Positions 19,004-64,000 of a DNA stretch of 64,000 bases are shown here, piece by piece. Origin of the DNA: Schmidtea polychroa (Eukaryota); the NCBI GenBank assembly GCA_044892525.1, contig CM097885.1, forward strand, positions 28,460,001 to 28,524,000. The letters are read 5' to 3'. The notes beneath the pieces were generated by a model. That model worked only from the letters and a program-made list of their open reading frames with translations. It did no database searches and was not told where the DNA came from. Positions within the stretch are counted from its first letter, which is position 1. Each line of letters begins with the position of its first letter. The translations under genes were made by a program, and so were the position numbers.

Positions 19004-19055
<52 letters not shown>

Positions 19056-21019: not shown

Positions 21020-21090
<71 letters not shown>

Positions 21091-21376: not shown

Positions 21377-21439
<63 letters not shown>

Positions 21440-23013: not shown

Positions 23014-23056
<43 letters not shown>

Positions 23057-23165
23057 TTAATATTAATAATAATAAAAATAATAATAATACTATTGATAAT
23101 AATAAATAATATTGATAATAATAATAATTTTGATATTAATAATAATAAATCCCATGGGCGCGTCA
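21230..23165 (-). repeat. Right inner arm incl. CA-rich minisatellite
   Basis: Reverse complement of 16235-18330. Confidence 0.9.
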
Positions 23166-25880: not shown

Positions 25881-25916
25881 TGGACCTTTGAACTCACCAT
25901 CAAAAGTCCTTTTGAA

Positions 25917-26019
<103 letters not shown>

Positions 26020-26039
26020 GATTTGAAAAATATTTAATT

Positions 26040-26855: not shown

Positions 26856-26934
26856 CCTTGTGTGAAGGTTTGGCCTTATTTGACCTTTGGAAATTTAAAT
26901 ATGACCTTGACCTTAAAACACGACACTGACCTCG

Positions 26935-39479: not shown

Positions 39480-40272
39480 GTAATTAATTGCATTTTGTTA
39501 GTAAATTTCTATTTAAAATTTTAATCAATATTTATTTTACTGCAAGATTTTAAATGTCGGAAATAATCAGTGAAATTGTTTTTATAAATTTATAATTAAT
39601 TATTTTTATATATACATTTGAATTATCCGAATAAGATTTTGTTTTAAATTTTTATTTATTAACAATATTATTAGAATAATTCTTATCATCAGAATAATTA
39701 TTTTTCAATTGCGTTTGATAAAGTTTAGCGCAATTGATTAAAAAATTGAACAAATTTTAATCGATTATTTTTAGGTGGAAACATGTTAAAATTTTATATT
39801 CAAAAAATTGCATTTTATTCTTTATTATGATCGATTAAATTGAAATTCTACTTGCTTTACGCAATATTAACAGTCGAGCGATTTGTAAATTTGATATTAA
39901 TTTAATTATTGATCATAAATATTTTTAATTGATTTCAATATACAAATTTTAGTTGAAAAGCAAATTTAACGAATTGAGTATATTTTGACCATTTATAATG
40001 TTTTAATACTAAATAAGCCATAATTTGTAAGTAAATAATAGTTAATTCACATATTCAGACCTTTATAAACCACTGAATTAGTTGATTATTAACGGGATTC
40101 TCCTAATCACAAAATACCAATTGGTGGATTATCGGATTCAATATCTTTTTGAATTACAATCAAATGACCAACTTTTTATTTAATAAATATGGCGCCCTTA
40201 TCCTGAAACACATATTTCCTGGAAGATTTTACTCTCCGTACCCATTGAACGGACATTTATTCTTAAATTGGC

Positions 40273-41663: not shown

Positions 41664-42735
41664 GGAACCATTGTTAATAATAAAGGAATTTTACCATATA
41701 ATTTTGCCACTAGTCTTGAAGTGCTTTGGTCAACTCCCCAATTACCGCCAATTTGGGATGGTGTTACTGAAGACGAATATTCTATGGCTGAAATTATATG
41801 GAGGGAAACCAACTGTAATAACCTTTGTGATTATATGATGGTCTATCTAAAACTAAATGTCTTTCTTTTAGCTGACTTTTTCCAACAGTTTCGAAATAAA
41901 TCTTTAGCTCATAATCGTCTTGAACCTATAAACTTCTTGGGCATTCCCGGTATGTCTTGGAATTCAGCTCTGATGACTTTAGACGAACCCATCGAGTTGA
42001 TTCAAGACATGGAGATGTTTAATTTCTTTGAGGGTGGTATAAGAGGGGGGTTGACATTTGTAAACAAACATTATGTTAATACAAATGAAAATACTGAACT
42101 TCTATATATCGATATTAATAATTTGTACGGCTGGGCTCTTAGCCAAAAACTACCTAGGGGTGAATTTTCTTGGGTGACGAATGAGCCTGAATTAATTAAT
42201 TTATTAAAAGACTGTGAATCTATTGATCTAGATTCACTTTCATATGGGTATACTATGGAAGTGGATCTAGATATTCCAACATCTTTTCACGATAAACTTA
42301 ATGATTTTCCGGTTGCAGCTGAAAAAATGTGTGCTCCAGGATCTAAAGTGGAGAAGTTGATGCTCACACATTTACCCAAGAAGAACTATGTTCTTCATTG
42401 GAAACTTCTACAACTTTATCTTTCTCTTGGAGTAAAAGTTACTCAAATTCACAGGGCTATCAAATTTCATCAGTCTACTATATTCAAAAATTACATTGAC
42501 ACAAACACCCAACTTCGAGCTGTGTCAACAAATACTCTTGATAAAAACTATTTTAAGCTTCTTAACAATAGTTTATATGGAAAGACAGTCGAAAATTTGA
42601 AGAAACGATTGAACTTGAGATTGTGTAACTCAGCTTCTAAACTGATTACTTATTCCTCTAAACCCACATTTAAAAAGACTTATAAAATAGATCATGACTT
42701 AATAGCCGTTTTATTAAATAAGGATTCAGTGTGTC
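41664..42735 (+). pseudogene. Polinton/Maverick protein-primed family B DNA polymerase fragment
   Basis: KGILPY, EGGIRGG, LYIDINNLYGWALSQKLP (motif A), YFKLLNNSLYGKT (motif B); open frame but truncated before YxDTDS; tail of the listed ORF is unrelated. Confidence 0.9.
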
Positions 42736-42967
42736 AGAGGTATAATTATTATATAAGAGGTCAATTATTACATAAGGGGGTCAATTATGACGAAAATTTA
42801 AAAAATCAATTATTACATAATCAAAAATATAATTACGCCATTTTATATGTAATTACGTAATTTCCAAAATTATGTAACACCATATCACCCCCTAGGGTAC
42901 CCATACACATATTACACAATACTGTATATTTGGCTTGGTTTATACTCCTCACTTCTCACTACTACAT

Positions 42968-43760: not shown

Positions 43761-44050
43761 TTTTATGGGCTACAAATAATAAAATTTTGTTAAAAATAAT
43801 TCTATACGACAAAGTAAACGTAAATGCAAAAAATAATATTTATATCGATTGACGTTTTTCATGTTACATAATTATATCGTATTCATAACTTATATTTAAA
43901 TACAGAATAAAATTATGAATATGCATGCTCTCAATAATGTAGTTAAATTAATTATTATATTATAGATATAGTAAAACTACTAAAATATAAAAGCATTAAC
44001 AGGATTTCAATTTTCAAAATCTGTAACAATGTTGCTGCCTAGCTCTGTAC

Positions 44051-45473
44051 TTATGGTCTGGGTTGTGCTGTATTCCATCGTGTTTCTGACTCACGCTTGA
44101 CTGTGATGGGCACTGCTTCTGTTAGTTTTTCGAGCACCCAAGCGTTTATCCCAACTAGATCTAAAATTTTAAAAACACTTGAAGTGGGAATCTTCTTGAA
44201 CCAGATTTGACACCATTTTCTTGCCATTTGGTCAAATGTATCAATGCCAAATTTAGTTTTATTACAATATCCAACAGTCTCGGGCAAACATTTTCCACTT
44301 TTTTAAATTTTAACAGATTTGTTTTTCGTACTTAGTAAAAGTACCTTCTTTGTTCGCTTGATTTTGTAAATTGTGAGAAGCATTACTTCTGATTTGTATA
44401 AAGATATTGAAAAACGAGGCATACTATCTTTTTTTGTTTGACTAATTTTGGTAATTCCTTTCCGTTGGCGCCTATAGTTCCAAGTTTTTTGGCAAATAGT
44501 TTAGATGGTATTGGTAAACTTGTAAAAAAATTATCTGTACATTGACATTTCATATTATACGGTTCCATAAGTTATGCCAAATTTATTTGGTTTGTTGGGC
44601 ATATATTGTGTGTATTGACATCTAGCCCTAGTAGGGAATAGTTGTTCATCAACGGTAACATTTTCTCTTGGTTTATAACAGTTTTGGCTGTTTTGTATGA
44701 ATTTGTTCCATACTGTTGATATCAACGCGAATTTATCTGTTTGTAATCTTTGACTTATACTTTTCTTATCAAAGCGAAGAAATCGCAAAATGTATATGAA
44801 ATCATTTCTACTTATCACTGCACTTACAAAAATTGGCCCACAGCTTATTGCATAAATAAAAAAGCCTTCAAGTTTCTGGTTTCATATTCCCTATGAACAT
44901 ATAGAATCACAATTAAAGCTACTAATTTTGATTTTGTAGGTATCCATGTATCTCCTAAGACTCGAGAGGTATTTCCTTCTGTACAAGTTCTTATATATTC
45001 TACAATCGAATCATCTATTATCAGTGAAAATGCGGTGCTAAATACACCTTTCATAACATGTCTTGCATATCCTGTACGACAGGATACATATTTGAAAATA
45101 GATTGAATTGGTTTTCTTCCACTACTAGGACCAGCTTGTAATTTTTCCCAAATTGTACAATCTGTTGCAATTTCCTTGTTTATTATTTTAGTCCTCAGAG
45201 CTTGAGAGTTGTATGTTTCTTTCTTTATTGAATATTCAAAATAGTTTCACTGTCATTTTCTGTATCAGTAGACTCGGCGTTAACCTCTTTATCGATAAGA
45301 GCACTACTATATATGGTCTCAAAAGGTATATTATTTTTACCATATGGTCCACTTTCACCACTAAGCAGTTCACCTTCACTATCATATAGGTCATCGTCTT
45401 CAATATCAGAATATTCCATAGGAATGTCATTTATTTTCACCAATGATGTGGCACTTTTCTTCAGTTTATCCAT
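44051..45473 (-). pseudogene. Degenerate piggyBac (PGBD4-like) transposase
   Basis: Frameshifted pieces: LRFLRFD, VTVDEQLFPTRARC, QYMPNKPNKFGI, TDNFFTS, TKFGIDTFDQMA; acidic N-terminus. Confidence 0.9.
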
Positions 45474-47010
45474 TTTGTTGAATTGATGCTAAAAATAGAA
45501 TTTGTGAAAATGACTGGTGACTGTATAAATAGGTAGAACACAGAATTATTTTTTCTTAGTATTAAAATTAAAAAATAAAATTATTCATAATATTAACTAC
45601 TTATATATAGTGTTAAAAAGTTGAAAATTTTAAATGTACTTGATTTTATTTATAAAGTTTATTCTTAACTTGCTTTTTTAAATTTAAGTTTAACAACTTA
45701 AAATTCATTTTCACAATGTTCATTTGCAATAATGAAATTTTCAAAAATTGGTTTCATTCTGCTACTTAGCACATTATTTAGTAATTATTTGTTTTTTAAC
45801 TTTTCATTACTTTTTTGGTTTTATGTTAAATTGATACTAACATCCACTTTAATTTCGATTTTTAGGGTTGAAAGTGTTATTAAATATTGATATTTAACAA
45901 AGAAAAACTCTTTGTATAAAAAGAATCAATATTTGTAATTATTAAATTAAAAATGTCATTCTTTAAATTTTTATTTAGTATTACTTTTTCATTTGAAATT
46001 TCTTTAATGTTAATATTTTTTAAGTTATATTTTATAATTTTATCAATTTTATTGTATAAAAATCTATTATATTTTTTAATATGAGTATTACTGAATTTTA
46101 AAATATTATTGAAATTTTCATAATCGAAACAATGTTTTTCGTTAAAGGAATTTTTATCATTATGGTTATTTTTAAGATTAAGATTTTTATTATTATTATT
46201 ATTTGTATTTAAATTTTTATTATAGATTGAATATATCATTAGATTGAATATTACGGTTATATATATACCTTTACCAGTGCTGACCAGTGTCAATGGTTTC
46301 GTTATTATTATTTTTAATATAGTAATTTGAATTTTTATTGTAATTAAAATAGAATTTCTTAGTTGATTTATATCTTTTAACATAAAAATTCTGATCAGAA
46401 TTACCGTTATTGATAATTCTAGTTAGGATCTTTCTTGCTGAGCAAAAGGTTTTATCTTCAGCATAGGTTTTAAGGTTATGATCCAGTTTAGGTCCATGAT
46501 TAGACTGATGCTTCAAAGTTTGGTTATTGGGAGTCATTCTCTCAATACCATCGGCAGCTACCATGGCATAAGATTTTATATTTGAGTTAAAATCTGTCTT
46601 CTTCCAGGAGGGACAGTGTTCCTCACTAACAGTATCTGCATATGGCTTCTGTGGTTCCTTATTAAGAATGTTAGATGAGGTGTGCCATGTTACTTCCGGA
46701 GCAGTTCTAAAAAATTCATTATTCATTGAAATAAGATCATTAAGTATTTAATTATCCAGTGGAGCTTTGTTGTTTCCATATCTCTCGGAGAGAGTTTTAG
46801 CCTGATAAAAGTGTTTCCATTGATATAAGTACCAAGATTGACGGATTTTTGTCCAGTGCTATGAATGTTATTTAGAAGTGATTCTTCTGAGCACTGGGAA
46901 ACGGCGGGAGAATTTGAATAAAATCTTTTTTTGAAATACATGCTTAAATTTTTAGGGTTGAAAGTGGAAAATTTCAACAATTTTATTGAGACTCTAATTA
47001 CATTAACACC

Positions 47011-47301
47011 TTATTGTTCGTGAGAGATGTTGGGTTGCGGTGACCTTGGTTCGACCTGGCGCTCTTGTTCGGCCATCCAGAGTCGCTTCAAGCGCTCTCT
47101 GCCATCCCGACCTAGCCTCTTACTCTTGGACTTTCCTGGCTTAGCTGTACGGATTTCTGTCAGCTCCTTGGACATTGGGCGAACTGCTGAAATAACTTGC
47201 TCGTCAATGGCCTTCTGGTTTAGTTGCGTTTCCATTGCGCGAATTTGTATTTTCAGCGCGAGGATTTCGGTTTTGTCTGCTGCGTTTGAGTCAATTTTCA
47301 T
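47011..47301 (-). CDS. Orphan-family ORF (5'-truncated), coiled-coil plus basic tail
   Basis: ILALKIQIRAMETQLNQKAIDEQVISAVRPMSKEL aligns with IKALRLRIRQLETQGNQAAIDRAVIDQVRLVAIEM (62186) and VVIAKIRPMSEL (60896). Confidence 0.55.
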   Translation of the reverse strand: MKIDSNAADKTEILALKIQIRAMETQLNQKAIDEQVISAVRPMSKELTEIRTAKPGKSKSKRLGRDGRERLKRLWMAEQERQVEPRSPQPNISHEQ

Positions 47302-48374
47302 GTGATACTTCTTGCATTTGTTTTGTTTTATTTCTTAATTTAAATTTTTATTTTCTGTTATTTTTACTTTTAATTATTATTGTTTATTTGATGTTACATA
47401 TTTTTATTTAACTAAACTTAATGCTTAAAGATTTGGTCTAGAATTCAGTTCTAGCCCAACACTTTGCTTTTTATATTGGTGTTTTCGTTATGAAAAAAAA
47501 TCAAAAACGTCGATGCACGTTGTATGTGGCTTCTTTTAAAAATAAAAATCTGAAATAAGAAAAAAATTTACATTCTAGATTAGATTACTTAAAGCTGTAT
47601 ATTTAGTTTTCTCATAATAAATTTATCGACTTCATTTCTCTTTAGGTCTTCTTTTGATTTTGATGTGTATCTCGATAAATACGATCTTGTCGCTACTGCA
47701 ATTCCACTTGGAACATTTTCTGATATTGATAATGAATTTGATCAAGAAATTCTACTTTATTCTATAAAATATAATTCTAATTAGTTACGTTCTTTCTCTT
47801 TTATTGTTTATAATAGGTTGGGATTTCATTAATTAACATTCCATAAAATTAATTAAAATTCGATAAACAAATTAAAGTGCAAAAATTGATTTAAAATTTG
47901 AAAAATCAATATTAGCGGGGAAAATATGGGCAGTGGGTGGGTTGTTAGTGGGGAAAACTTGCATGATTTTATACGTTCTGCTCTATCGATGCTCTCCTCA
48001 TATCCACCTGACCATCACCACTTCAAATAATTTTTTCATTTAACTACTAAACGCCCGCCACAAGCGACGTTAGTATTGGGATTTAGCGGGTGGCTGTCAA
48101 ACAATGATGAGCTTAACCAAAAACTAGTTAAAACAATCAGACTGTTGATCACATAAAATTACTACAAGATAAAGACCAAAAACAATATTTTTAACAACAT
48201 TTATTTATTAAAAATCTCCATCTAAAAAGGCTGAACTGGGAATCGGTATCCCCAGTAATGATGTTAATTTCGCAGTCGAATTCGTTTCGATATTTTTGTA
48301 CATCCTAAATTTAGATAGATCCAGTACAGATTGACTAATGTAACTGAGTCTATTCAAACACACCGATTGATTAT

Positions 48375-48872
48375 TGCTGGGGTGCTACTCGGTTGACTCC
48401 AACGACTTTTAAGTCCTGTCTAGAGGATGATAGCCCATTACGTTAACGTAGTTCACAATTCTGTCAACCCGGAGTAGAGTTCCACACGATCTGCACTCCA
48501 ACATAATACCCATGAATTACTTCATCTTGGTCCTGTATTATGCCGGCGAGACGCCAGAAAGCAGGTGAGCCCCTACCTTAGGACTACTCCTTTCTGAGGC
48601 CTCGACTTCCTTTTTCCCTGACTGCCGATAGAAGGTCTCACGTCTTCTTACTCTACCACTACACTTGACATTTCATCGCGTCTGAGTTTGTTGCGAATTA
48701 TAGCAGATCATACACTATACAAGGATGTTTATCAATCATCTATTCCGTAGAGAAAAATAAAGTCCACCGATTCATAAAGCACAACGCAATAACTTACACA
48801 AAACCGATTTATTAAATTACCAATATACAATAGAAAAATACAAACATAAAGAAGCACAGTATATCACATCGA
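48375..48872 (-). repeat. Conserved 3' module of the orphan-ORF family
   Basis: Collinear with 52832-53322. Confidence 0.85.
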
Positions 48873-48875
48873 ATG

Positions 48876-49399
48876 TGTTGGATACCCGGGAGGAAAGAAA
48901 TTAAAACAACATAACATACGATCATTCTAGCCTGCTCAGTATACCTTCCCAGCATATCCACGATGACTGCCGATATCCCTCATATTTTCCCGTGGTGATG
49001 TCACACGTTGGTTATGCGCACATGGATCGGAGTTCGCTAACAGGTGAGCCCCTATCTTAGGACTACTATTAACTAACTCACGGTTCGGGTTCTAAGGTGC
49101 CGTATAAGGACTTACCCATATTTCTACACACAACTTGGTACGACCCTGGTCCAAGGGGACGACCTTCATCAGATGGTTGCATTCTTAGATGATCATTCAA
49201 TTCAGATGAACCACATAATAACCTCAAATCGACTCGCTAAACGAAGAATATTATATTAAATTCATCAAACACATAGTTGACATCAATATATTACACAAAT
49301 AAATGTTAAGCAGAAAAACACAAATAGAGTTTCAGAGAGTTATGGATCATAATCACGACTATCAGTGAGAATGGAGACGGGAATCGTCGATGAACTGGA
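48876..49399 (-). repeat. 3' module downstream of ORF 49400-50167
   Basis: CAGGTGAGCCCCT...TTAGGACTACT and GACTGCCGAT motifs; terminal stem 48879-48893/48944-48960; ends CCAACA on the minus strand. Confidence 0.65.
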
Positions 49400-50167
49400 T
49401 TACGGGAAGACTTCCCCTTCGGCCAACATCTCGTCGATATCCACGGGTAGCCGGCGATCCACGATAAATTTCGTACTTCCGGCCGGGACTACTCGGAACA
49501 CTTCCTTGGTGGGTATCGAATGTGAAGCTGAGATCTCTCGTATCGTCGATTTAGCGACCGTCAATGATGCCTCTAACGCGGCGATGGCGTTCCTACGCCT
49601 CTGATTCTTTTCGGAACGCGTAGGCCTCTTATGCTTCCGGTATGGCGCTGCCGCTTCTACTGAGGGTTGAATATTTTGGGGCAGAAGAATCGGAGCCAAA
49701 ATAGGGTCCGGCGGACCATTTGTCATGGGCCTAGAGCCCGACAGAACTGGGGCGAGAAGGGGTGGTAATTGAGATCCATGCCCCTTACAGTTGGCCGTTG
49801 ATGTAGAGGTCCCGTATGCCTGATGATGGGTCGGGAAGACATTGGTCCCGTCCTGGATGGGGTATTTACGAACTCTTTTTGCTACTTCTGCTTCTGTATA
49901 GACTTTATGTAGGGCCTCTGATTGGGCTTTAATCGTTAGCCGATGGCATCTACTTTCCTCAAGGAGACTGTCACGGCAGTGCTCCAGGCGTAAGATTTTA
50001 CTTCGTTCCTCCTTCATCTGTGGCGGGGAGAACCACGTACCTTCGTATAGGTCTATACGCTTTTTTAGTGCCCCAATGTAAAGATGTAGTTTCTCGATAT
50101 CCATATTCTTATCAGCACAAGAAAAACACGGGCGAAGGTCCTTGTTAGAGCTGGTAGGTGTAGTCAT
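49400..50167 (-). CDS. Orphan-family ORF, 255 aa (CxxC, coiled coil, EGTWFSP motif)
   Basis: Long ORF in a GC-elevated island; clear paralog of 53375-54124. Confidence 0.75.
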   Translation of the reverse strand: MTTPTSSNKDLRPCFSCADKNMDIEKLHLYIGALKKRIDLYEGTWFSPPQMKEERSKILRLEHCRDSLLEESRCHRLTIKAQSEALHKVYTEAEVAKRVRKYPIQDGTNVFPTHHQAYGTSTSTANCKGHGSQLPPLLAPVLSGSRPMTNGPPDPILAPILLPQNIQPSVEAAAPYRKHKRPTRSEKNQRRRNAIAALEASLTVAKSTIREISASHSIPTKEVFRVVPAGSTKFIVDRRLPVDIDEMLAEGEVFP

Positions 50168-51327
50168 CTAAAGATCAAGAAAATTCGTAACATAATCAAT
50201 AATAATCATTTACGTGGCGTTTATAAATTCAAATGTGAGTTTCGTAGTGACATCAATCATTCCATTCGGTGATCCTCAGCGAATCCTTACCACTCGCAGA
50301 CATTCATACCCATTCAAGCTTGATCGACTCAATCCATGCAAACCAAGAGAAAACGGGAATCATTCCATTGCCTGTATGTGTTGCTGTATTTTGCTTGTCA
50401 TGCTTGGCATCACTAACAGATTTTGTAGATAGATGGAAAATTTAGTCGGAGTTGCAGAAAGAGTGACTTCTATAGTTGCGTGGATCACTTATCACTTTAT
50501 CAGCTGAAAATTTGTTTTGCGACTGTTTTTCTAGCCTGTGTTGATATCGCGATAAAGGCTAACTATCTCGTCTACCCGCTGGCTGTCACTCAACAATCTA
50601 TATGCTGGCTATTTTATCAGAGCATTTCTTGTCCATCTACTGTAGCTAATTCCCGCAAAACAAAACTGACAGATAACTTCTCAAAATCGCCGACGGTAGT
50701 TTTCCTCAGAAATAGGGTAAGTACTGCTATTAATTATCGGAGAATGTTTATATTCCTGTCAAGATTGAGTTGTTATCGATGATAGTGGCTGGTCAAAACC
50801 GATTATCTAGTCCTCTCAGAACCTTATAGATGAGCGAGATTATGGATTTAGTCGCTAATGTCCTTGCGATGCCAAAATTTTGGAAAAATCTCAAATTCCT
50901 GATGTTTAACATGAAAAAAACGTTGGAATTACTCGCGAATCGCAAGGTAACGATCTCTCCCAATGTATGTTCGGACAGTCGGGCTTGCATAAGTAAATTC
51001 AATAATTGTATCAGCCGTCAACAAAGTCGAATCATGTCTACTAAGAACTTCAATTGCAAATTTGATTGGGGCCATAGCCTGAAGAAGTGTTTTTCCAATC
51101 CATTGAAATCGAAATTATTTATCATGTCCAAGTTATACAATGTCAATTCCAATGGTGTTTAACATCCAATGAAGTTCAATGCCATTACCGTGATGTAATT
51201 TGACTTTCTCTTAAAATATGTTTACGAACCGTTGAATTTTTGATAAATTTAACGAGTTTCCGTGCTCTTTTTAGCAATTCATGAAAGTCAATGTTCTCAT
51301 CAAATTGATTGTCAAACTCCATATCTA

Positions 51328-51532
51328 CCGTATATTTCGGCGTATAAGACGACAGTCAAAAAATCACCCTTGAAAATTGTGGGTCGTCTTATACAACGAT
51401 ATAAAAGAAAGTATTACAGTACAGGTAGTTGTATTTATACTACTACAACCGATATATGATAAATCATAAAAATTTGCTCTAATTTTGTACCTCGTCTTAT
51501 CTGACGGTCGCCTTATACGCCGAAATATACGG
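51328..51532. mobile_element. pogo/Tigger-type MITE
   Basis: ~26-bp TIR CCGTATATTTCGGCGTATAAG(A/G)CGAC; TA TSD. Confidence 0.9.
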
Positions 51533-51543
51533 TAATTCGTGTT

Positions 51544-51850
51544 TGGTGCCTGGGGGTGTGCCATCCAGGTGTAGAACATCTAGGGGTGAGACTGAAGCTA
51601 TTTATGGCTCTTTCCCAGACACTCAAGGTGATTTGTCAATATATCTCCCTCATGTGTGCCCATGACGAGTCATGTTGGTACTGCACACATAGGTCGGAAC
51701 CTGTGAGGAAGTGAGGCCCTGTGTCAGGACTACTCCACACAGCATTCGCAGTTCGGGTTCTTGAATGCCGTCAGAAAGACTTACATCGAGCGGTACTTGC
51801 TTCTGGTCCAGGCGAGGATATTCAACACGATCTTGAGAATTATAATCACA
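51544..51850 (-). repeat. Isolated 3' module of the orphan-ORF family
   Basis: GTGAGGCCCT...AGGACTACTCC and GTTCGGGTTCT..GCCGT..GACTTAC shared with 49040-49115; ends GCACCA on the minus strand. Confidence 0.65.
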
Positions 51851-52831
51851 TATTCGGAGGATGAGGAGACAACAAATCATATTTATACGTTTATTTTATT
51901 TGAACGTTATTAGAGACATCCAATAGAATACTAATACAAGTATACACCTATAGTGTTATTGCAATAGTGATCAATAATTAACTTTATGACATCACTTTCA
52001 TTGACAGGAATCTTAAATCAATATCGCTGAATAGATTTTCTTATATAATTATTTCTAGTTAATGCGAGGATAGTTATACCGTCAGTAGCTAAATCTGACA
52101 CAATTTCATTTAATGATTGCTTTGAACATAATTCAGCATTGTTTTCATTTTCTTATTTACTGGCTGATATATCTTGCGTATCTTCATCTTCGACAAAAAT
52201 TACGAGATTTCAAATGGTTTCTCAAAGAAGTGTATGATCCTTTTGAGCATTGATTTTCGACAATGATGACAAATACCGCTAATTTCCTTAGTAACTTTAT
52301 CTTCAATTTTTGGCGCATATTCCGAAATCACGTCTGAAAAAATTAATTAAATAAGAATGCTACACAAAGTAACAACATAATTATCAAATACTTACTTGCT
52401 TAATCTCGTGTTTTATGCAAAAATTAAATATAAATAGCTATCACAACTGAAAAACTTGAATTATTCAAATTTATTAAAAATATCAGTATTTTGATAATTA
52501 CTTAACCATTCGGAAAACTATTAGATATAGCCATTAACTTGACAAATTTTCCCTCAATGGCAATAATTTAAAAATTATAAATTTTATTTCAATATTTTTT
52601 ACAAATTTAATTTGATTAACGAATCAAGTGACAATTATTTAAAAGATTTTAGTTTATTAATATTTATATAAACCAGCGGTTCTTGAAATTATTGAATATC
52701 GGGACAAAAAATTTCTTGGCGGACCCCAAAGTTCATTCATCAATAAACCAATTCAGACAGTGTTTATAAGAAAAATTAAAATTTATTTACTGTATTTTTT
52801 ATAATTCTCTGAGATACATACAATATATAAA

Positions 52832-53322
52832 TGCTGGGGTGCTACTCGGTTGATTCAACTGACTTTTAAGTCCCGTCTAGAGGATGATGGTCCGTTACAC
52901 TAACGTATTTCATCTTTCTGTCAACCTTGATTAGAACTTCACACGATCTACATTCCAACATAATACCCATGACTTCTTCATGTTGGTACTTTATTATGCC
53001 GGCGAGACACCAGAAAACAGGTGAGCCCCTGCCTTAGGACTACTCTTTTCTGAGGCCTCGACTTCTCTTTCCCTGACTGCCGATAGAAGGTCTTACGTCT
53101 TCCTACTCCTCGACACTCGACGTTCCATCATTTTCTGAGTTCGTTGCCAGTCCTACCCTATTCAAAGATTTCAGTCAACCAAATTATCCCTTGCTGGTGG
53201 TAGGGAAAAAGAAAATAACAACAGACGAGACAAAACCCAATGATTTAAACACAAATTATTTATTCAATTTTCAATATCCAAGAGAAACATAGATACTACA
53301 AGCAAAATAGTTCATCACATCC
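52832..53322 (-). repeat. 3' module downstream of ORF 53375-54124
   Basis: AATAAA on the minus strand near 53260, then conserved ~320-bp block ending CCCCAGCA. Confidence 0.85.
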
Positions 53323-53374
53323 GATCAATTGCAAGAGTTATGACTAAAAACATCAGCCTGTATAAGGAACTTGG

Positions 53375-54124
53375 TCACTTTTCCCATTCAGTTTCCGCTA
53401 ATAATGCCTCTAGGTCGAAAAATTCGGACGCATTCTCCTCCCACGTGACGCCAGCCGCGGAGATAATACGCTCTGAGATTCCGGTGTTCACGCTGTTTGC
53501 AGGAGCAACACTACCTTCTATTGATTCAACCACTGAGCCTCGCGTCTTCTCCTTTGCTGCAATTCTTTCCTTCTGCTTTCGTTTCCGTTCAGCTCGAGAT
53601 AGCTGTCGCCATTTGGGCTTAGAAGAGGAATCGATAATGGGGGTGGCTTTAGATTTGGAAGCAATCTTTTGATTCACTTTGCTGGTGCCCGTACAGATTA
53701 CGTCATTAGATTTGGGCGAGAGCTCCGCCTCCACACACCCCTGGCATGATTTCTCCGATGTACGCGGTCTATCAAGAGGTTGATCGTGATGCGTGGGGAA
53801 TACATTATCCTCCTCAATGATCGGAATGCTTACGAACTTTCGCGTTGTTGCAGCTTGTAAGTAAACCTTATGAAGGGCCTCAGATTGCTCCTTAATAAGA
53901 ATACTTTGAAATATACTTTCTGCGATCAGGCTATCACGACAGTGTTCGCTTCTATACAATTTCTTTTTCACTTCCTTCATCTGCACTGGACTAAACCAGG
54001 TGCCTTCTAATTCGTCGATCTTGCGTTTAAGAAGTCCGATTTGTGTCTGTAGTCCCTTGATGGCTACATTCTTATCTGCACACGAATAACAAGGCTTGAG
54101 AACATTCTTGGCGACTGGATTCAT
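53375..54124 (-). CDS. Orphan-family ORF, 249 aa
   Basis: LKPCYSCADKN...LKRKIDELEGTWFSPVQMKE...EHCRDSL...QSEALHKVY...NVFPTHH shared with 49400-50167. Confidence 0.75.
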   Translation of the reverse strand: MNPVAKNVLKPCYSCADKNVAIKGLQTQIGLLKRKIDELEGTWFSPVQMKEVKKKLYRSEHCRDSLIAESIFQSILIKEQSEALHKVYLQAATTRKFVSIPIIEEDNVFPTHHDQPLDRPRTSEKSCQGCVEAELSPKSNDVICTGTSKVNQKIASKSKATPIIDSSSKPKWRQLSRAERKRKQKERIAAKEKTRGSVVESIEGSVAPANSVNTGISERIISAAGVTWEENASEFFDLEALLAETEWEK

Positions 54125-57100
54125 GATCGTTAGCTATAATAGAAAAAATAGAGAGTAACTATCAATAATCTACTTCATCCGTCAACAGATTGTACATAAA
54201 AATAAGCATTAGCTGTCTTATGGTCCATTTGATTCACCTATAAAGTTTGCGCAATCATCAGGACAACCCTTTACCGACAAGGGAAACTCACCCCCCACTA
54301 GCATAATTTTATATTGAAAAATAAAAGGTAAAATCTTATGGCATCCCCCCATAGTTATCTAAATTATTTGCAAGAAAATTGGAAATACGCACGAATAGTT
54401 ATTGGAATTAATTTCATTTACATCCGATGGGGAATAGGCATATATTAAGATCAGTTAATAGCAAAATGAGATATGCAGAAATGTAAATTAAATCAATCCT
54501 TATTCATTCCTATCTTGGATCATCAAATAATAAACACTTTAATTAGGAAAGAAATAGATTAGTTATTCTCAATGTGACACTTCAATTATCTCTAGCTATA
54601 ACTGGTTCATAGTCTGTATGTTAGCAAAGATAATAGTTTGCGAATCCACCCATTGAAATCAGCTGTTTGTCGTACATGCACTTTGTAGCGAATTATGTCA
54701 TCGGTGACGTGAAGGTGGAATCAAAAGAATTTAAAGTGAATAGCAAACTAGTGTTTAGCCAGCCTGCTGATAACGCTGTGGTGGTTCTCAGACACTATTT
54801 GATGACTGTTCATTATCTCGATATTTGAATTCAAGTGCACGACAAAATAAGCTTATCTCGATAATTTCATGCGGTTATTCACATGGATCGATTCATGGCA
54901 TTCGATACTCATCAGACGGGATGGGTGGTGTCATCCCAACCATGTAAACTAGACTATGTATATCATATCAAAAATTTGTCATGTCGCATGTGCTTTTACT
55001 CGCTCTAAGTGCTTTTCTCATGGAGTATTTTCGCATCTTATTAATATGCAAGTCTCACAGCGGGATGATCAACTATCATAAAATCATGGAAATTATCGGT
55101 GCCTCGTGACTATGCAACTGTTCTGTGGATGTATTTTCGCAGCCTGCTGTTCCTCGAGCGTGTATCGACTTAAATTGTAATTGTTCAGAAAGAAACGTGC
55201 TCCTCGTGGAATCACATGCTGGCTACTCAATGATCAGTTCTAGCTTACGATGTGCTGAGTACTATCCACAGGTATGACAATGGATCATTTTCGAAAGTAA
55301 CTTTAGTTTTCCGTTTTGTTGTTCAAGAATAAAATGTACATAATTGTTTTTCGCATTTATTTTCGAATATCTATATCGTAAGGAGACGATGAAAAATGGA
55401 CTTATACTAATTTAGATTATTCGAGGAGAATATGAACGGTGAGACAGATCTTATAGGTTTTTGGTGAATTAAAAAAAATGGAAATAAATTTGATGTTCGT
55501 GCGGTGATACTAGTGTGAGTGATGGGAATTGGATGAGACTCACATTGTGCTATTACTTACGAGAATATCCTGAATCAAATATAGCCCCGACGACATCTAT
55601 TTTCGAAGTAATGACTAAATACAATTCATCATAACTGAGCTTTGGTACTTTTACTTATGTGATGGGATGGTTAAGGTGAAGTGACGAATTTTGCGCGAAT
55701 TTTTCAAAGGTAGAGCTAGTCTAAGATCGGTTAAGAAACTTCTGATTACGACAAATGTGCAACACCCTCAATCACTGTGTAGGCCTACTCATGACACATC
55801 CTGCCTCCTACCTCTCAATAGTACGACCGCTTTTCCAATACTCTACATTGACTTTATTTTCACAACAGTATCTCCCACTAGTTTAGGCGCATCTTCAGTG
55901 ATGGACTTGTGGGGAAGCCCCCACATTTCGGCCCGAATCAGCTGCGTGACTGAAATGCTCCGTACCCACCGGCTGAGCACCCGAAGGCCCCTCACACCAT
56001 GGTATGAAACATTTCAGCTCCACGTTACTCAGTGAATTTTTATTAAAGCATGAAAACATAAAAACCTAAAAATATAAAACTCGCATAAAAAATGGTTACT
56101 AATAATTTCATCATAAAAATAATTATTTAATTACATCGAGTGAAAAGGAGAAATGTTTTCAAAATTTTTAATTTTACATCCAAATATTACAAATAGTTAT
56201 TTTCATAAATTACTTAATCATACCACATTATAAAGAAAAACAAAAATTTACCAATATATCCGTTCAAGATTTCTTGATAAGTAAAATCAAATTCTGAAGT
56301 CCTGTTAAATAGTAATTCGAATGATCTGTGGTCTGAATCGATTTCTTCTATTTCTCCTAGATTATCCTGATAACTAATATGTGCGAATGCTAAAGCTGAA
56401 TCGTGGTTTAGTTGACCCTAGATAGTTAATTTGTTAACACTGAAATTTTTGTTTCAGTGCTTACCTTATATACTAATTTTTGCGTGTGTGCGGACCAATC
56501 AAAATTGAGCGCCGCTTAATTATTTGTGTTAATTCAATTTCTATATTTTTTTGCTGATTTTCTTATTTTTTTCTTTGTTTTTATTATATTTTTATTTATT
56601 TTCTTAATTTTCTTATTAACTACTTGATTTTTATGTTATTTTCCTCATTATTGCAGTTTTTCTTATCTTAATTTTTTTTGTTTTAATTTTCATTGCCTTA
56701 TTTATTATTTCTTCTTTATTATGTCTTATTTTATTTTTAATTTTTAGTTTATTTTTCCTGATTTGTTTATCATGTTTGTATTATTTCTTAATGTTACTTT
56801 CTTATTTTTTATTTCAATTCAGCCCAACATAAAAAACAAATAAAATAAAGTGTTGGGCTAGAACTGACTTCTAGACCCAAATTTTTAATTGTGACCGAAA
56901 TATGTAGGTACACAGCATGCAAAAAGCAAAAAGTATAGTTAAATATTGAAAACTACACCAAATAAACAATAGTAATTAAAGGAAAAAACAACAAAAACCT
57001 AAAACACAGAAATTAAATAAAAGTTATACAAAAGCAAGAAGTTATGCAAAATCTAACTCAAAAATAACCAAGTAAACATAGAATTACAAAAAGCAAACTC

Positions 57101-58379
57101 GAATAACTTAAAAGACGATAAAAACAGTAAAAAGATTTCAGAAAAACCCAGAACATTCCATAAAATGGCGACGACCATCACAACGGCCATCTAGAACAAC
57201 AAAAGTTAGAGAAAATAAATAAATTAGTATTAAAAATAAAAAATCTTAAAAGAAATTCATAAAAAAGCAGTTAAAATGAAAATTGTATTAAAAAAATAAA
57301 ATAGAATGTTCTGGAACCGTTCCAAATCCATCATGGACGTAAAATTAATGAAAAATAATTAGAAAATAAAAATTTAAAAATAAAAACAAAAATTATAGCA
57401 CTAAAATTTCCATTAAAAATATCAAAATCACGAAATAGAAAATTCTGGAATAAAAAGAATTCGAGTTTGTTTTAATGCATCAATACATACACGTGTACAA
57501 AATAGGTATATATACCGACGCATTTTAGTCACAATTTAATCTTTTTGTATGCCAAAAATTTTCATCGAAAATCTAATTGACACCGAGAGTAAGAATTTGT
57601 TGATTATATTTATTTTATGATTGTTCTTTTATCATTATAGTTCATTTTATTAATTATATTTTTATCCTTTTTTCATATTTGATTATTACTGAACCAGAGT
57701 GACTAGCGTCGTCGTGAATGGGTAGCATCCGCGACGCTGATCAGTCTTGTTTTCAACCAGTAGCCACATGCACAATTTTTGGGTCTACGACCCCACATGC
57801 ATAAATATTTTAACATTTTTTATTAACCGGAGGTCGCCACGAACAAATGGTTCTAACCAGGAGTAGGGCGGTAAACCCATACCGGTAGTTTGCATAGTCA
57901 TAGGGACTATGCGGATGACATAAACTGCGGGAAAGTAATCGCGGGAAACATAGCACAATAAGGCCTATCGTACCGTATTCAGTTGAGTCGGGAAAGTAGG
58001 AAAATTTTAATTAATTCGACCTTTCGGTAAACGACATACCAAAAATAAACACTTAATTCTGCTATAGGAAATATATCACTAGGAACATCTAAACGGGAAA
58101 TATCCCAGACTCAAATTAATACAGAGGCTTTCGGTAGTCGGCTAATTGCATAAACTAATATCTAATATTAACAGATTTTAGTACTACTATTCATAATTTT
58201 ATTCAATGTAATTTAGTTCACGTTCAATGTACATTTTTATAAACTAAAATCCCTTCAAAATTTTTATTCTTACCTTTATGTGTATTGAAATTTAGTTGAC
58301 ATAAAATCTTCAAAGATTTTTTTGTGTGCGTCCTAAGAATATTATCAACTTTGGTATCATTACTATTATCATGATTGAT

Positions 58380-58880
58380 TTTCTAAAATTACATTATTAA
58401 AGGGTATATCATTCCCATATAACGGCATATCTAGGTATATTAAACTTTCTTAATACATATTTACATTATGTTTAGAAAATGATAAATTATAAATTTTCTC
58501 AAATGACCCCCGGAATATATATTCATCACCCAAATGTCCTAAATGAACTTATTTTAATATATAATTTTAGATAGTAATATGTTAAAATAATAATTTAGCA
58601 ATTTCCATCTTTAGGATCGTTATTATTATTATTAATTTTCTACAAATTACCTTACTAAAGTGTATATTATTACCATATAAAAGCATATAGGAGTATATCA
58701 AGTTTCCTTAATGTATATCTAACTTATATTATGTTTAGAAAAAGCTAAATTACAAGTTTCTTAAATGAACCCCCCCCCGAAATATACCTCCATTACCCAT
58801 TGCATAAATATCCTAAATTAACTTATTTTAATATATATTTAGAATTGTAGTATGTTAAAAATGACGATTTATAAATTTTC
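58380..58880 (+). repeat. Diverged tandem duplication, ~255-bp unit x2
   Basis: ATTATGTTTAGAAAA, TCCTAAAT.AACTTATTTTAATATATA and TATGTTAAAA each occur twice in order. Confidence 0.75.
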
Positions 58881-60895
58881 CTAAATACCCCTGCCATAAA
58901 TCAACTTATTGTGATATAGAAGGATTACTTATAAATTTTCATAAATATCCCCTTTTCGATTCCCATAGTCCTTAAGGACTACCTAAAAGTATTAGTTTAA
59001 TTTGCTTCGGAACCTAGTTAGCTTACATTACTCTTAGAAATATCATCGTACATCTCAGGGCGAAAGATGAGTTCATAATTTTCCGCAAGTGATTCCCCAT
59101 ATGTGGTAATCCTATACACTACGAATTTATATTTATTATTATCATCATTAACCTTATTGTCATTGTTATTATTAATGTTATTATCATTACTAATATTACC
59201 ATTCTCATTGTTATGATTATTGCTATTATTATTATTATCATTATCTTCGTCATTATTATTGATATTATTATTATAATGAATATTATTATTAATATCTTTC
59301 GTATCATTAATACCATCATTATTAAGGTTATTATTATTACCGCTATTAGTGTTATTACCACTTTTTCACCCTTGTCATTTCCATTATTATTTTCCCTATC
59401 ATTATTATTACATTATTAATCAATTATAAATTTTGTTTTAGCAAAAATTAGTGATTTTGGGATCCCCCTATGTCTAAATTTAGTTGCAAGAATCCTACCT
59501 TATTCACTATATAACCTACTCCAACCAATATATCGATTTTCTTAACGTTACTATTAATAGAAAATTCAAACCGATATTATCGATTTTCTTTTCCTTATAT
59601 AAAAATGTAACCAATAGAACCGATTCTATTTATAGAAATAACCATGCAAATTAAGGGGTGCCCTCGCCGAATTTACCCAGACTAACCGAATGGACAAGAC
59701 ATGCATTCTCGCAAACGAGCCAATCACCATCGACCAAGGCAGCAGGAAACCCTGATCTTTGAATACAACCACCGACAACTTGGCTAATTTAACCCCTGTC
59801 ATTCCAGAAGTAGAATCCATGTATACCAGAAAAGACAAGGGACTTCGCTTAAATTAGGATACATGTTCCGTACAACCATGAACCAGGAACAATGAGGAAC
59901 ATATATTACAGTTATAACCGCTAATTACCTAAAAACTAACAAAATTGTCTAATAACTATTACCTTACACTAAATAAATTATTCAATTAAATGCAATAAAA
60001 GCGAAAAATCATTCAATGAAATCAAAAAGAAAAAGAAATTTTTTTTTATTTTATTTAAGGAATCATTTTAAACACTGTAAAAGCCTTACCGATGATGTGG
60101 GAGGGTGAGTGAAAGGAGAGTCACTCGAAATTCCCTTAAGATCCCACGGCATCGATCCAAAATTGAATAATGAATAGAAATTCCCATCTAAACACTTTAC
60201 AAATTGAGTAAGTCGGCATAATTTGGGTTACCACCAAACGGTAACCTGCCGAATACTCTATCCGATGGAAGTGTCGTGCCCGAAACGGAGGGTTCGGAAA
60301 TCCATTTCTGAAATAAAACGAATTTATCAGAATCAAAATTTGATTTACCCACTGAATAGCAATAGATGATCTGGCCACCTACAACCACTATGGTCAGGGA
60401 TTGCGAAGAGCCGAAATAAATTCGGACAATTAACAATGCCGTTTTCCATAATGGGCCTTAGTAGCATAATTTTGTTGAATAAGAGGGAAAAATTTATTTT
60501 TAAAAAAGGAAACTAATGTGAAATAACAAGTTAAACCTCAAATAAGTTAAACAAATTGTTTCGAATATGTGATTTTAATTTAATTTATGAAATTCTAATT
60601 TTTCTATTTTAATTTTGTCCACCCTTAAGTTGTTAAACCCAATTTACCAATCTTTAATGTATGAACTTAATTTAATTTAGTAATCCGGATCTAATTTATT
60701 AAATTGGATATATGAACCAAATATGGAAATTAATTCGTAAATTAATTTACTTTACCTACAAAATCATTGTCTGTTGAATTGGTTGTATATTATGCTTGAA
60801 TATAAATTGTAATGGGGTGTTTGGACATTTTGGAGTGATCGAACGTAAATAGAAGTACAAAGATTTGTTTTAATATTTTTTTTATCATTACAGTC

Positions 60896-61357
60896 ATGTC
60901 CAATGCTGAATTAAGGAACGTACAGGAAGACCGCTCGTCGACCGACTCGAGCCTAGGAATTACCGGCGAGGGGGCAGACGAAGCCGTTCGATTGAGGGAG
61001 GACGCAGAAATCGCCCGGTTACGGTCCAGATGGATCTGGTACAAGATTCATGATTGGACCTACCAGAATGTGGTCCCGGTGATTCCAAAGGTGGAGCCAT
61101 ATCTCAACCATTCGGCATTGGCTTTGATCGACGCATTAGACGATGCGAAGGAGGCGGTGGTCATTGCCAAGATCCGACCTATGAGTGAGTTGTTCCACCA
61201 ATCGAAGGGGTGCCCCCCAACAACAGCAATTCCGAGGAAGAAGATTCGGCCGGGTAAAGCGGCGCGAGCGAGAATAAGGCAAGCCAGCCAGACCCAATTA
61301 ACTCTCCATTCTACTGGATCAGGGGCTACCCCAAGAGAATCGACCAGGAAACTCTAA
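60896..61357 (+). CDS. Orphan-family ORF, 153 aa
   Basis: GC-elevated ORF; VVIAKIRPMSEL and KKIRPGKAARARIR match VISAVRPMSKEL and SKRLGRDGRERLK of 47011-47301; followed by family 3' module. Confidence 0.65.
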   Translation: MSNAELRNVQEDRSSTDSSLGITGEGADEAVRLREDAEIARLRSRWIWYKIHDWTYQNVVPVIPKVEPYLNHSALALIDALDDAKEAVVIAKIRPMSELFHQSKGCPPTTAIPRKKIRPGKAARARIRQASQTQLTLHSTGSGATPRESTRKL

Positions 61358-61726
61358 GTTGTCCATGTTTTCCGAATAAATCTTTACTGGTGTATCCATG
61401 TCTGTACATTTTGATTTTTTTTTTGTGTTGTTGATTATTGCCAAGGGGACGAAAGAAATCGGACATAGACCTTCTATCGGCAGTCCGTGAACCCCAGTGG
61501 GTACTAGACAATTATAGTATGTTAAGCATGCTCACTTTTTGCTAGAACCCAAACCCTTGATACAGTACCAACGTTGATTGCTCAACGGGTATCAAGTGGT
61601 CAGCTATAAATTGTATTCTGGGTTACGCTGGAAACAGCATGAGGAGGTAAAGATTTTTCAGTACCTGTAACCCACCAAAAATAATAAAATATTTATAACA
61701 TTTAAAATTATGTATATTTAATTTTT

Positions 61727-62130
61727 ACCATGTGAAGGATGGTGTTGCTTTTGTGACACTAGAATTGCAATATTAGGATATGTTTATCCTTAATTCTGGT
61801 TCAACATCCAACCGATTTCGATATTTATTCTTCATGTATAATAGCATCGAGAAAGCTCTTTCAAAATGGTATAAAATGGAAGTAAATATTTAATTGCTTT
61901 TTCAGCTAATGTTGGATATACATTTTTAACTTTCAACCAAAACTCTTCAACAGTATGCTCATTAAAAACCAACCTGTAGGAGCTGTCGCATGATAATTCT
62001 GCAAGTTCATCTTGCTCTGAAATTGTCAAATTTTGTACTTCGATATTTTTGCAACAAAATGGATCTCGAACCCATTCATGGTCTGATGTGGTAGAAGGAA
62101 AATAATTTCTAAAAGATTCTTAACATTTTT
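61727..62130 (-). pseudogene. hAT Buster/Charlie transposase C-terminal (dimerisation) fragment
   Basis: WVRDPF, EQDELAELSCD, EEFWLKVKNVYPTLAEKAIKYLLPF, terminal KQHHPSH. Confidence 0.85.
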
Positions 62131-62185
62131 ATATATTCAATTAAAATCTGAATTTCTTCGACAGACAGTTTGTTATCAGAATTTT

Positions 62186-62554
62186 CTAAAAATTATCCAC
62201 AAATCCATTTTTTTCATTATTGCTGGTGGGTTCGACGTTTCGTCGTCTGGCGATCTCCGCCATCTCGATCGCCACTAGTCTGACTTGATCGATCACGGCT
62301 CGATCGATGGCTGCCTGATTCCCCTGGGTTTCTAGTTGTCGGATTCGCAGTCGTAGTGCCTTTATTTTCACCTGGTCTTGAGTAGCCTGGAGTTGCAACT
62401 GTTGGATCAACCGCATACTCTTCTTCATTTCTGTAGGGTTGAACCAGGTATTCTCCAGTTCTCGACATCGACCCTTGAGTCTGTCGATCCACCTGCGCAA
62501 TTCCTCATTCTGTTTTGCCGCTGTCTCCTTATCTGCCCACAGGTTTTCCATCAA
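62186..62554 (-). CDS. Orphan-family ORF, ~122 aa, 3'-truncated
   Basis: ADK...LKGRCRELENTWFNPTEMK links it to 49400/53375; C-terminal half links to 47011. Confidence 0.65.
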   Translation of the reverse strand: MMENLWADKETAAKQNEELRRWIDRLKGRCRELENTWFNPTEMKKSMRLIQQLQLQATQDQVKIKALRLRIRQLETQGNQAAIDRAVIDQVRLVAIEMAEIARRRNVEPTSNNEKNGFVDNF

Positions 62555-62843
62555 TTAGATCACTAAATAATAATTAGGGTGAGAGGTGATTCCATACCGT
62601 TCGAACTAAATTAATCAATGATCCGCATAGTTCACTCATGTCATTAACTTAACCGATCTATAGAACGTGTTTGGCGACTATTGTAGTTAATTTTCGATAT
62701 TTACGATCTTAGTTAGGACATAGCATCTTAGGAATTAATAATTATGAACAAACACAACTTATTTCCAATATATTGTCACTGAAAAATCGATGAAATGAAG
62801 TACATATTATAATTGTAAATTTATTTTTATACCATATATTCAG

Positions 62844-62846
<3 letters not shown>

Positions 62847-62937
<91 letters not shown>
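62847..62937. repeat. (TA)n microsatellite
   Basis: Direct observation. Confidence 0.95.
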
Positions 62938-62941
<4 letters not shown>

Positions 62942-63763
62942 ATAAGCCACAATAATACTATTCATAATTCAATATTCAATAATACTATTATGCTGGTTAT
63001 AATTATAATTTTTTTTCCTCGACTCCTTACGAATTGATTGTCAATTGATTTAAGTCCGACTATTATATAATTCCGGTTTGCGTTTGCTATAAAATTAATA
63101 ATTGAAGAATTTGTAACTTGAAATTACGGAAACTGAACCTGGCATAAATGTTGACATCTTAATTTCATTAATTTTTAATATTAATTAACCTAAATACTAT
63201 GAATAAAGTAAGGGAATTAGTCAAATCAAGAAGCAGGAGAAATTCATATAGAATTTTATTTCATTATAAACAAATAATAAATTCGATCCAGACTACTCAT
63301 TCTGAGTCGGCCGATTGGTTACGGTGGGACTTCGACTTCGAGGGGGCTGCATTTCCTAAAATACAATAATACGTCATCAAATCCAACACCCTAGGCTTAC
63401 CTTTGGTGCCAATAGCTTGTGACGAACAACAATAATCATCTTACCACAAATATTGGGAACCGAAACCGGGTTTTGTACAAATAAGCCATGACCAAAGCAC
63501 CACCAACGATCTGGGGTTTCCAATTGGGCTGGGAGCGAAATAAGAATGCTATTATCATAATACAATGAAATTTGAACCATGACTATTACTAAAAACAAAA
63601 ATTAGCACAATAAAACAAAGGTTACCATGGTTAAGTTGATTAATTTCATGCCATAAATGCCTAATATGCTCTACCACTTAAGTACAACTCGATTTTTAAC
63701 CTAGAAATGATTTTGATAAATTTATGGATTGATTCTTACCATAGCGTATGATTTTGATAAAAT

Positions 63764-64000
63764 TGGTGGGTTACAGGTGGTCAGACATCTCACCCTTTCG
63801 TGCTGTTTCCAGTGTAACCCAGAATACAAGGTTGATTCTACCAATGGACACCCGATGAGCGATCATCGTTGGTAATGTGTCAACTGGGTGAGTACTCGTA
63901 AAAAGTGAGCGCACTACTTGCACTATAATTGTCGGGTACTCTTTGGGTCCACGGACTATCGATAGAAGATTTGTGTCCGATTTCATTGGTCCTTTGCCTC
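63764..64000 (-). repeat. 3' module of the orphan-ORF family (continues beyond window)
   Basis: Reverse complement collinear with 61461-61677, ending CCTGTAACCCACCA. Confidence 0.85.

Follow-up and report, generated by a model that had tools for sequence, protein, structure and literature searches.

Protein genes and a conserved folded RNA in the long terminal repeats of Burro-type giant gypsy elements of Schmidtea polychroa

A 64,000-nucleotide stretch of Schmidtea polychroa DNA (NCBI GenBank assembly GCA_044892525.1, contig CM097885.1, positions 28,460,001 to 28,524,000 of the forward strand; hereafter the window) contains five open reading frames (ORFs), at 47011-47301(-), 49400-50167(-), 53375-54124(-), 60896-61357(+) and 62186-62554(-), with coordinates and strands as given by an earlier sequence-only reading. 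All five sit in solo or broken long terminal repeats (LTRs) of Burro-type giant gypsy elements. Based on sequence comparison, the LTR ORFs fall into two protein families, A/beta and alpha. A/beta, which accounts for most of the five, is tentatively proposed to be a regulator that works like retroviral Rev or Rex, acting with a folded RNA of the same LTR. The window is AT-rich and crowded with transposon fragments, and the ORFs stand out from it in GC content (0.46-0.54 versus 0.28 for the window), as had been noted. The earlier reading of them as accessory proteins of a mobile element is correct. The element family is not an undescribed one, as had been supposed, since it corresponds to a Burro-type gypsy described in PMC6431247.

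The window holds LTRs only and no Burro element body; the parent element is visible in relatives elsewhere in the genome, where a first look gave 1490-6983 candidates per ORF and at least 149 relatives of each. For ORF 49400, hand counts of the 149 best matches gave 138 without a stop and 46 that form 23 same-strand pairs spaced 26.0-26.7 kb apart. Relatives of the other four ORFs are also paired, at spacings of 26-31 kb. In all seven relative pairs examined, the two members are located in direct repeats 4.15-5.57 kb long, with 99.1-100% identity between the repeats. These repeats start with TG, end with CA and have 4-bp target duplications, followed by a shared motif like a primer-binding site (PBS; 7/7), which we take to resemble a tRNA-Pro site, and the total element length is 30.2-36.3 kb. 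The linkage to gag-pol that the sequence-only reading had suggested looking for is present: the paired LTRs flank a polyprotein with gag, env, protease (PR), reverse transcriptase (RT), ribonuclease H (RH), integrase (IN) and ankyrin regions. This polyprotein, of about 4,700-4,800 codons, includes CCHC and viral fusion domains and is open over about 4,800 and about 4,730 codons in two clade-A elements; in clade B the frame is in pieces with the same domains. Gag was detected in two clade-A elements, the env-like fusion domain PF24664 lies in frame between gag and PR in all four elements scanned there (E down to 3e-72), and ankyrin is found in five of five elements. Accessory ORFs encode MATH, RING and BIR-RING domains in B1 and RING and TRAF-MATH domains in A1. 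The LTRs of clade A have one gene, of about 250 amino acids (aa), and those of clade B have two, alpha followed by beta; all LTR genes are located in the 3' third of the LTR.

This architecture agrees with the published description of Burro/GYPSM1, an element of 30-36 kb with a polyprotein of gag, an env-like region before PR, RT, RH, IN and ankyrin, a cargo that includes MATH/TRAF, RING and BIR domains, and a high abundance in planarian genomes (PMC6431247). Judged by the two together, the parent element is almost certainly of the Burro/GYPSM1 type, sharing its length, single giant polyprotein, domain order, ankyrin and MATH/TRAF, RING and BIR cargo (PMC6431247). The Pfam scans did not report the BCL2-like, SUMO-like and dUTPase-like motifs that PMC6431247 describes from HHpred. 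In contrast to the elements studied here, the description in the text of PMC6431247 names no LTR protein gene, RNA structure or cassette exchange. Penelope/Terminon-like ORFs with hammerheads were dropped as a candidate identity, as the paired LTRs, the PBS-like site and the gypsy pol speak against them. Host-gene capture of the kind seen in BEL/Pao was also dropped, with no host homolog found. The absence of RT from the window, remarked on earlier, only reflects that the window holds solo and broken LTRs without bodies; the accompanying statement that the five ORFs have no known domain stands, with no Pfam match above cutoff for these ORFs or for the alignments A2, A3 and A4. Three further arrangements were observed in these elements. 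A-type genes are repeated four times at 33.2-kb and three times at 20.5-kb spacing (G000:C1:145063309-145163763; C158:14681-56424), for which tandem elements or duplications are candidate readings. At L147:2270-3800, the LTR of a full element is adjoined by another, diverged LTR piece that has an alpha and a beta of its own, an LTR-in-LTR clustering that resembles the arrangement in the window. Finally, internal accessory ORFs are packed about 40-210 nucleotides (nt) apart (L032, L034, L137, L140, L152, L155), most with YAG just before ATG, which resembles an operon resolved by spliced-leader (SL) trans-splicing or an alternatively spliced viral transcript.

The A (250-aa type) and beta (150-aa type) proteins are homologous (hhalign 92%, E 6e-7), whereas alpha is unrelated to either (hhalign 0.1% and 0.7%). 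The earlier proposal of a single five-member family therefore holds in part: A/beta homology spans four ORFs and the tail of the fifth, and the idea of one family was dropped because the head of ORF 60896 (residues 1-88) is alpha. Similarly, the motifs quoted for the family are all present, with none common to all five ORFs. PC(F/Y)SC occurs in two (49400, 53375), ExTWFxPxxMK in three (49400, 53375, 62186), the AID/IRPMS motif in three (47011, 60896, 62186) and the basic helix in four, having been lost from 62186. In structure models, A and beta are predicted to consist of a helix, a kink at TWFxP, a long helix, a linker and a basic helix. One A/beta model has a predicted local distance difference test (pLDDT) score of about 88 in helices, low in linkers, with a predicted TM-score (pTM) of 0.31, and the other a mean pLDDT of 86.5 with a pTM of 0.39. 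The basic helix, itself a prediction, has 8-10 Arg/Lys per 16 residues; distant homologs have up to 12, in arginine runs. These features suggest that the earlier claim of nucleic-acid binding is probably right. The A proteins have invariant Cys/His residues, and an acidic hydrophobic C-terminal motif is present in 45 of 45 A proteins and 0 of 19 beta proteins (by a pattern drawn from A sequences). Among alpha proteins, 18 of 21 have an AT-hook core, and Pfam AT_hook was found in one of ten (E 0.006).

A long coiled coil with a basic helix, as in these models, is also what a structural or nucleic-acid chaperone of the particle would look like, similar to LINE-1 ORF1p. Such a function is improbable. 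ORF1p appears at Z 6.9 in a wide structural comparison that returned only tied generic coiled coils (Z up to 7.2, all below 8, identity 4-14%), and gag already has CCHC knuckles. Other comparisons were similarly uninformative: sequences in the PDB gave no match for A or beta, Foldseek against the PDB gave a single row (E 9.7), a search of a viral library with the protein models gave none at E 0.001, and the Atlas placed homologue P0001 among generic coiled-coil clusters with low shared-feature counts. Word-index protein searches returned no A protein among 1265 candidates, one beta copy among 4376 and no alpha among 8000. A profile search of 1.84 billion proteins gave 16 matches (best E 5e-13). 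Omitting two of the 16 that lacked the anchor, and with two others cut at a wrong anchor, the alignment of 14 of these distant homologs matches A at 99.4% and beta at 87.9%. In 13 of the 16, the domain is fused to parts of unrelated genes with Pfam domains. Going by their sequences, these fusions are likely gene models that took up an LTR exon: the host partners are all different, as expected of mis-prediction. Real exonisation is possible. In one homolog, the host exon is 90% identical to G000 and the LTR part at most 41% identical, which indicates that the homolog comes from a related genome.

The A/beta and alpha genes have the substitution pattern of maintained proteins. In IQ-TREE estimates from open natural copies, the ratio of nonsynonymous to synonymous substitution rates (dN/dS, omega) is 0.150 for A1 (n=27), 0.125 for A2 (n=18), 0.183 for beta (17 of 19 copies) and 0.312 for alpha (16 of 21), beta and alpha rows with chimeric or shifted tails having been removed beforehand. 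Shifted frames give an omega of 0.8-2.9; for the antisense frame, whose third positions coincide with those of the sense frame, the range is 0.16-0.53, the mirror effect that one would expect. Pairwise omega for A at dS > 0.4 is 0.09-0.10. The branches to the two open window copies, which are at a dS of 0.56-0.61 to the nearest relatives compared, have an omega of 0.10 and 0.14 at a dS of 0.45. The samples were open copies chosen as best protein matches, which lowers omega and to that extent weakens the case built on it; this sampling is an unlikely cause of an omega of 0.1 at a dS near 1. The range of 0.125-0.31 bears out the selection at the protein level that had been suspected from motif persistence. 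In our reading, selection on the LTR ORFs acts during element replication and not after insertion.

Behind the ORFs, the final 300 nt of the LTR show conservation in clades A and B alike, judged from 12 copies selected by position, and RNAalifold predicts two bulged hairpins in this region. For covariation, 125 pattern matches were reduced to 26 by removal of near-duplicates and one false match was dropped; the pattern itself partly accounts for the invariant letters in this set, but not for the pairing. Both sides vary in 18 of 23 pairs. Pairing holds in 94.5% of cells, compared with 71.7% in shuffled alignments (0 of 500 as high) and 33-45% when slid; the last comparison is biased towards the structure, which was derived from this alignment. 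In 21 of 25 copies one pair is U-G, which points to the sense strand. Single-copy sense-strand z-scores are -4.4, -3.2, -2.3, -2.1, -1.1 and -1.0. A scan of 44000-64000 with Rfam gave three chance matches, none near the gathering score, and hence no known ribozyme or RNA family. A donor-like GT(A/G)AG lies just 5' of the RNA element in 53 of 60 clade-A copies.

Signals resembling splice acceptors are seen at the other end of the genes. The LTR ORFs had been described as intronless, which is correct for the coding part and incomplete for the gene, as a pyrimidine-rich tract and YAG precede the ORFs. YAG stands directly before ATG in 12 of 13 A1 contexts. The distance is 5 or 9 nt in 24 of 25 A2 contexts (one of the 24 without ATG) and 2 nt in all 15 in-register alpha contexts, which are of B3 type. 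In beta there is no conserved ATG; the gene starts at YAG followed by TG in codon phase 1 (YAG in 87 of 89 pattern matches), and splicing may create its start codon, or an exon further upstream may provide it. No intron-less genomic beta copy was found among the 89 matches of this pattern, which saw only non-T letters at the acceptor. Among internal accessory ORFs, 12 of 18 have an acceptor-like signal, compared with 179 of 666 background ATGs (p 5e-4) and 44 of 138 in an AT-matched background (p 3e-3); the 18 include homologous ORFs and are not fully independent. From these signals, we infer that the ORFs are read from spliced subgenomic RNAs. Either a leader joined by cis-splicing or SL trans-splicing, a process present in planarians (PMC12582326), would fit. 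Contigs of four putative RNA runs were compared with part of an A1 LTR; one covers 30 of 30 bins and the others 5, 5 and 2, in data that cannot show start, strand or level, and the contig matches listed include no acceptor joint.

The LTR genes appear to be exchanged as a unit. Three clade-B elements have bodies of 93-96% DNA identity, with RT 98-100% and TRAF 96-97% identical in protein, and beta proteins only 41-48% identical. The identity of clade-B LTRs drops at position 700 from 0.81-0.98 to 0.36-0.53 (L137-L151), a break that may mark a promoter or R border. This pattern is a strong hint, from three elements only, that the LTR cassette is exchangeable between near-identical bodies. Exchange fits a regulator and its target moving together, and also selection on promoters or escape from silencing. 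The divergence also bears on the idea that the LTR proteins are host-modulating accessory proteins (Nef/Sag-like or anti-silencing), with the basic helix serving only as a nuclear localisation signal and the RNA element as an independent packaging or priming signal. The LTR proteins diverge far faster than RT (41-55% versus 98-100%), as in host conflicts, Burro bears many host-modulating genes (RING, TRAF, BIR; PMC6431247), and the known LTR ORFs sag and nef act on the host (PMC2664473, PMC12789967). However, omega is low (0.13-0.18) with no gene-level sign of positive selection, distant homologs from another genome retain the arginine run, and protein and RNA element travel as one cassette. 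We consider host modulation quite unlikely.

The observations above can be assembled into a model for A/beta. A single unspliced 30-kb genome together with seven to eight acceptor-led ORFs implies that intron-containing RNA must leave the nucleus. In complex retroviruses, Rev, Rex or Rem is paired with a structured RNA element; RexRE is located in the 3' LTR of human T-cell leukaemia virus type 1 (HTLV-1), and sag and rem exon 2 in the U3 of mouse mammary tumour virus (MMTV) (PMC12789967). The LTR genes resemble the Rex/RexRE and Rem/RmRE systems in that a small, here putatively spliced, gene lies at the 3' end or LTR together with structured LTR RNA (PMC12789967). A Rev/Rex-like role is favoured, as a possibility short of a firm assignment, because of the arginine-rich helix, the likely oligomerisation coil and the conserved RNA structure behind the ORF. 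Rex and Rev themselves carry an arginine-rich motif. A/beta would oligomerise through its predicted coiled coil, and its arginine-rich helix would bind the conserved folded RNA of the same LTR. The protein could thereby set the balance between the 30-kb unspliced genome and seven to eight spliced accessory mRNAs by export, stabilisation or a splicing block, and alpha, via its AT-hook core, might act on DNA or chromatin.

Several points weigh against this model. There is no sequence or fold link to Rev or Rex, and CERV, a protein of the Caenorhabditis elegans element Cer1, is set apart by description. Pfam REV (PF00424) was found in 0 of 28 A and 0 of 16 beta proteins at E 0.01; the lone match, in one of 16 distant homologs, is below cutoff (19.1 versus 22 bits) and may reflect composition. 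No nuclear export signal is family-wide: the best patterns occur in 13 of 16 beta and 14 of 28 A proteins, inside the coiled coil and in differing places. A helix rich in Arg/Lys could equally be a nuclear localisation signal or a DNA-binding helix. The donor-like site near the RNA element is present in 0 of 42 clade-B copies, and the element could be a packaging, dimerisation or priming signal without an LTR protein partner. Moreover, the acidic hydrophobic C-terminal motif of clade A (45/45) suits an activation domain. This last feature belongs to a different scheme, in which the proteins are trans-activators like Tat, Tas or Tax: A would bind LTR DNA or a TAR-like nascent RNA and recruit activators via its acidic C-terminus, and in clade B the job would be split between alpha, through its AT-hook core (18/21), and beta. 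The invariant Cys/His residues of A are in keeping with this, the bulged hairpins recall TAR, and a 30-kb transcript would presumably gain from processive elongation. In contrast, beta is homologous to A and lacks the acidic tail (0/19), and no match to known activators was obtained. Trans-activation is judged unlikely, and the Rev/Rex-like regulator remains the favoured, tentative reading. Without Rev homology, A/beta would at most work like Rev and is not Rev.

The LTR remains and related features of the window are as follows.
47011..47334 (-): C-terminal half of beta (clade B), N-terminal half gone; about 320 bp with 82-87% DNA identity to relatives.
47307..47461 (-): clade-B LTR, 5' end, which an internal deletion connects to mid-beta sequence; matches LTR positions 1-193 of B1, B2 and B3.
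48375..48870 (-): 3' end of an A2-type LTR with RNA element at about 48485-48654; another LTR cuts in at 48876.
48876..50938 (-): A1-type LTR, 3' half, ending at 48876, with RNA element at about 48964-49133.
49400..50167 (-): A1 LTR gene, 255 aa, open, TAG directly before ATG; branch dN/dS 0.10.
51541..51800 (-): 3' end of a further A-type LTR with RNA element, no ORF kept.
52832..56829 (-): complete A2-type solo LTR, 3998 bp, 4-bp target duplication on both sides.
52940..53089 (-): two-hairpin RNA element of the A2 solo LTR, z -2.3.
53375..54124 (-): A2 LTR gene, 249 aa, open, TAG 9 nt before ATG; branch dN/dS 0.14.
56851..61677 (+): B3-type solo LTR, 4827 bp, one internal deletion of about 0.93 kb; flanks match at three of four bases.
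60896..61357 (+): chimeric ORF, alpha residues 1-88 plus the last 65 codons of beta, in-frame joint at 61159.
61446..61615 (+): two-hairpin RNA element of the B3 solo LTR, z -2.1.
62186..62554 (-): beta LTR gene in an LTR fragment, basic tail absent; similarity to relatives stops near residue 110.
63764..64000 (-): 3' end of a B2-type LTR with RNA element, running past the window end.
RNA element copies in the window: 48485-48654, 48964-49133, 51631-51800, 52940-53089, 61446-61615, 63825-63994 and 7649-7818.

Relatives of ORF 47011 have frames of 130-170 codons; in the window, a deletion has left only the C-terminal half of this beta gene. The A1 LTR half that carries ORF 49400 interrupts the end of another LTR. 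Nearly all matches of ORF 60896 end at residue 88-93, and from the alignments the deletion of about 0.93 kb fused the alpha head in frame to the beta end. The B2-type LTR from 63764 has beta-like and alpha sequence in the part beyond the window (L045). The two copies that are open despite a dS of 0.56-0.61 could be taken for members of a domesticated host gene cluster, as could the gene models of another genome that fuse the domain to host genes. This is highly improbable given the thousands of first-look candidates genome-wide and the truncated or chimeric state of three of the five window ORFs. In addition, 138 of the 149 best A1 matches are open, so that openness is ordinary, and the host partners in the gene models all differ, as mis-prediction would give.

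Other features were noted in the window. At 51326-51534, amid the LTR fragments, 33-bp inverted repeats surround a short insert, similar to a miniature inverted-repeat transposable element. Large nested inverted repeats and satellite arrays at 13688-27607 surround a RING-finger ORF (20157-20483) and are possibly a fold-back element. A 358-aa ORF at 41784-42860 has no Pfam match; we take its motifs to be those of a family-B DNA polymerase (Polinton-like). Transposase fragments are of the DDE_Tnp_1_7 (44555-44881, E 3e-15) and ISXO2-like (28328-28777, E 6e-13) types. An intronless kinase ORF is present at 31291-32133, and exons of a rhodopsin-family G-protein-coupled receptor and a methyltransferase-16 at 2244-2792 and 39163-39483, respectively.

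Relative to known systems, the Burro element itself and ORFs in LTRs as such are already known (PMC6431247, PMC2664473). The latter include MMTV sag, lentiviral nef and ORFs of bovine foamy virus and HML LTRs, and like the genes studied here they are coding frames inside an LTR that occur at both ends of the element and stay behind in solo LTRs (PMC2664473). The present genes differ in being whole genes, one or two per LTR, in its 3' third; each is preceded by a separate acceptor-like site, and the element that carries them is an invertebrate gypsy. They are unlike Rex and Rem in having no sequence or fold homology, a long coiled coil and no conserved export signal, with the whole coding region inside a 4-5.6 kb LTR, a metaviral backbone and a predicted function. 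The closest functional precedent in a retrotransposon is CERV, which is made from a spliced RNA of the LTR retrotransposon Cer1, is needed to export unspliced genomic RNA and has a helical zipper domain, a basic nuclear localisation signal and a cysteine-rich part (PMC10309623). CERV, compared here by description, has sequence in common with GAG and contains globular M and G domains, whereas A/beta models have only helices and linkers, and the text of PMC10309623 mentions no RNA element in the LTR. The available text of the literature surveyed (including PMC6431247, PMC11410931, PMC8532177 and PMC13465017) contained no report of genes or an RNA structure within Burro LTRs, and primary Burro papers may show them; that text also gave no explanation of how a 30-kb Burro expresses its polyprotein and seven to eight accessory genes.

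The LTR genes, acceptor-like sites and conserved RNA together provide a concrete and testable control circuit for such expression. Through solo LTRs, acceptor-led coding exons are spread across the genome, where gene predictors join them to host genes. One Burro family is reported to support stem-cell survival and regeneration (as cited in PMC13465017). A broader and rather doubtful extension of the proposal is that Burro evolved, independently of retroviruses, an LTR-contained control module of regulator and cognate RNA that is exchanged as a specificity cassette, and that the regulator may still be provided in trans from thousands of solo LTRs. If the Rev/Rex-like role is true, A/beta would mark the second time, after CERV, that LTR retrotransposons arrived independently at a Rev-like solution.

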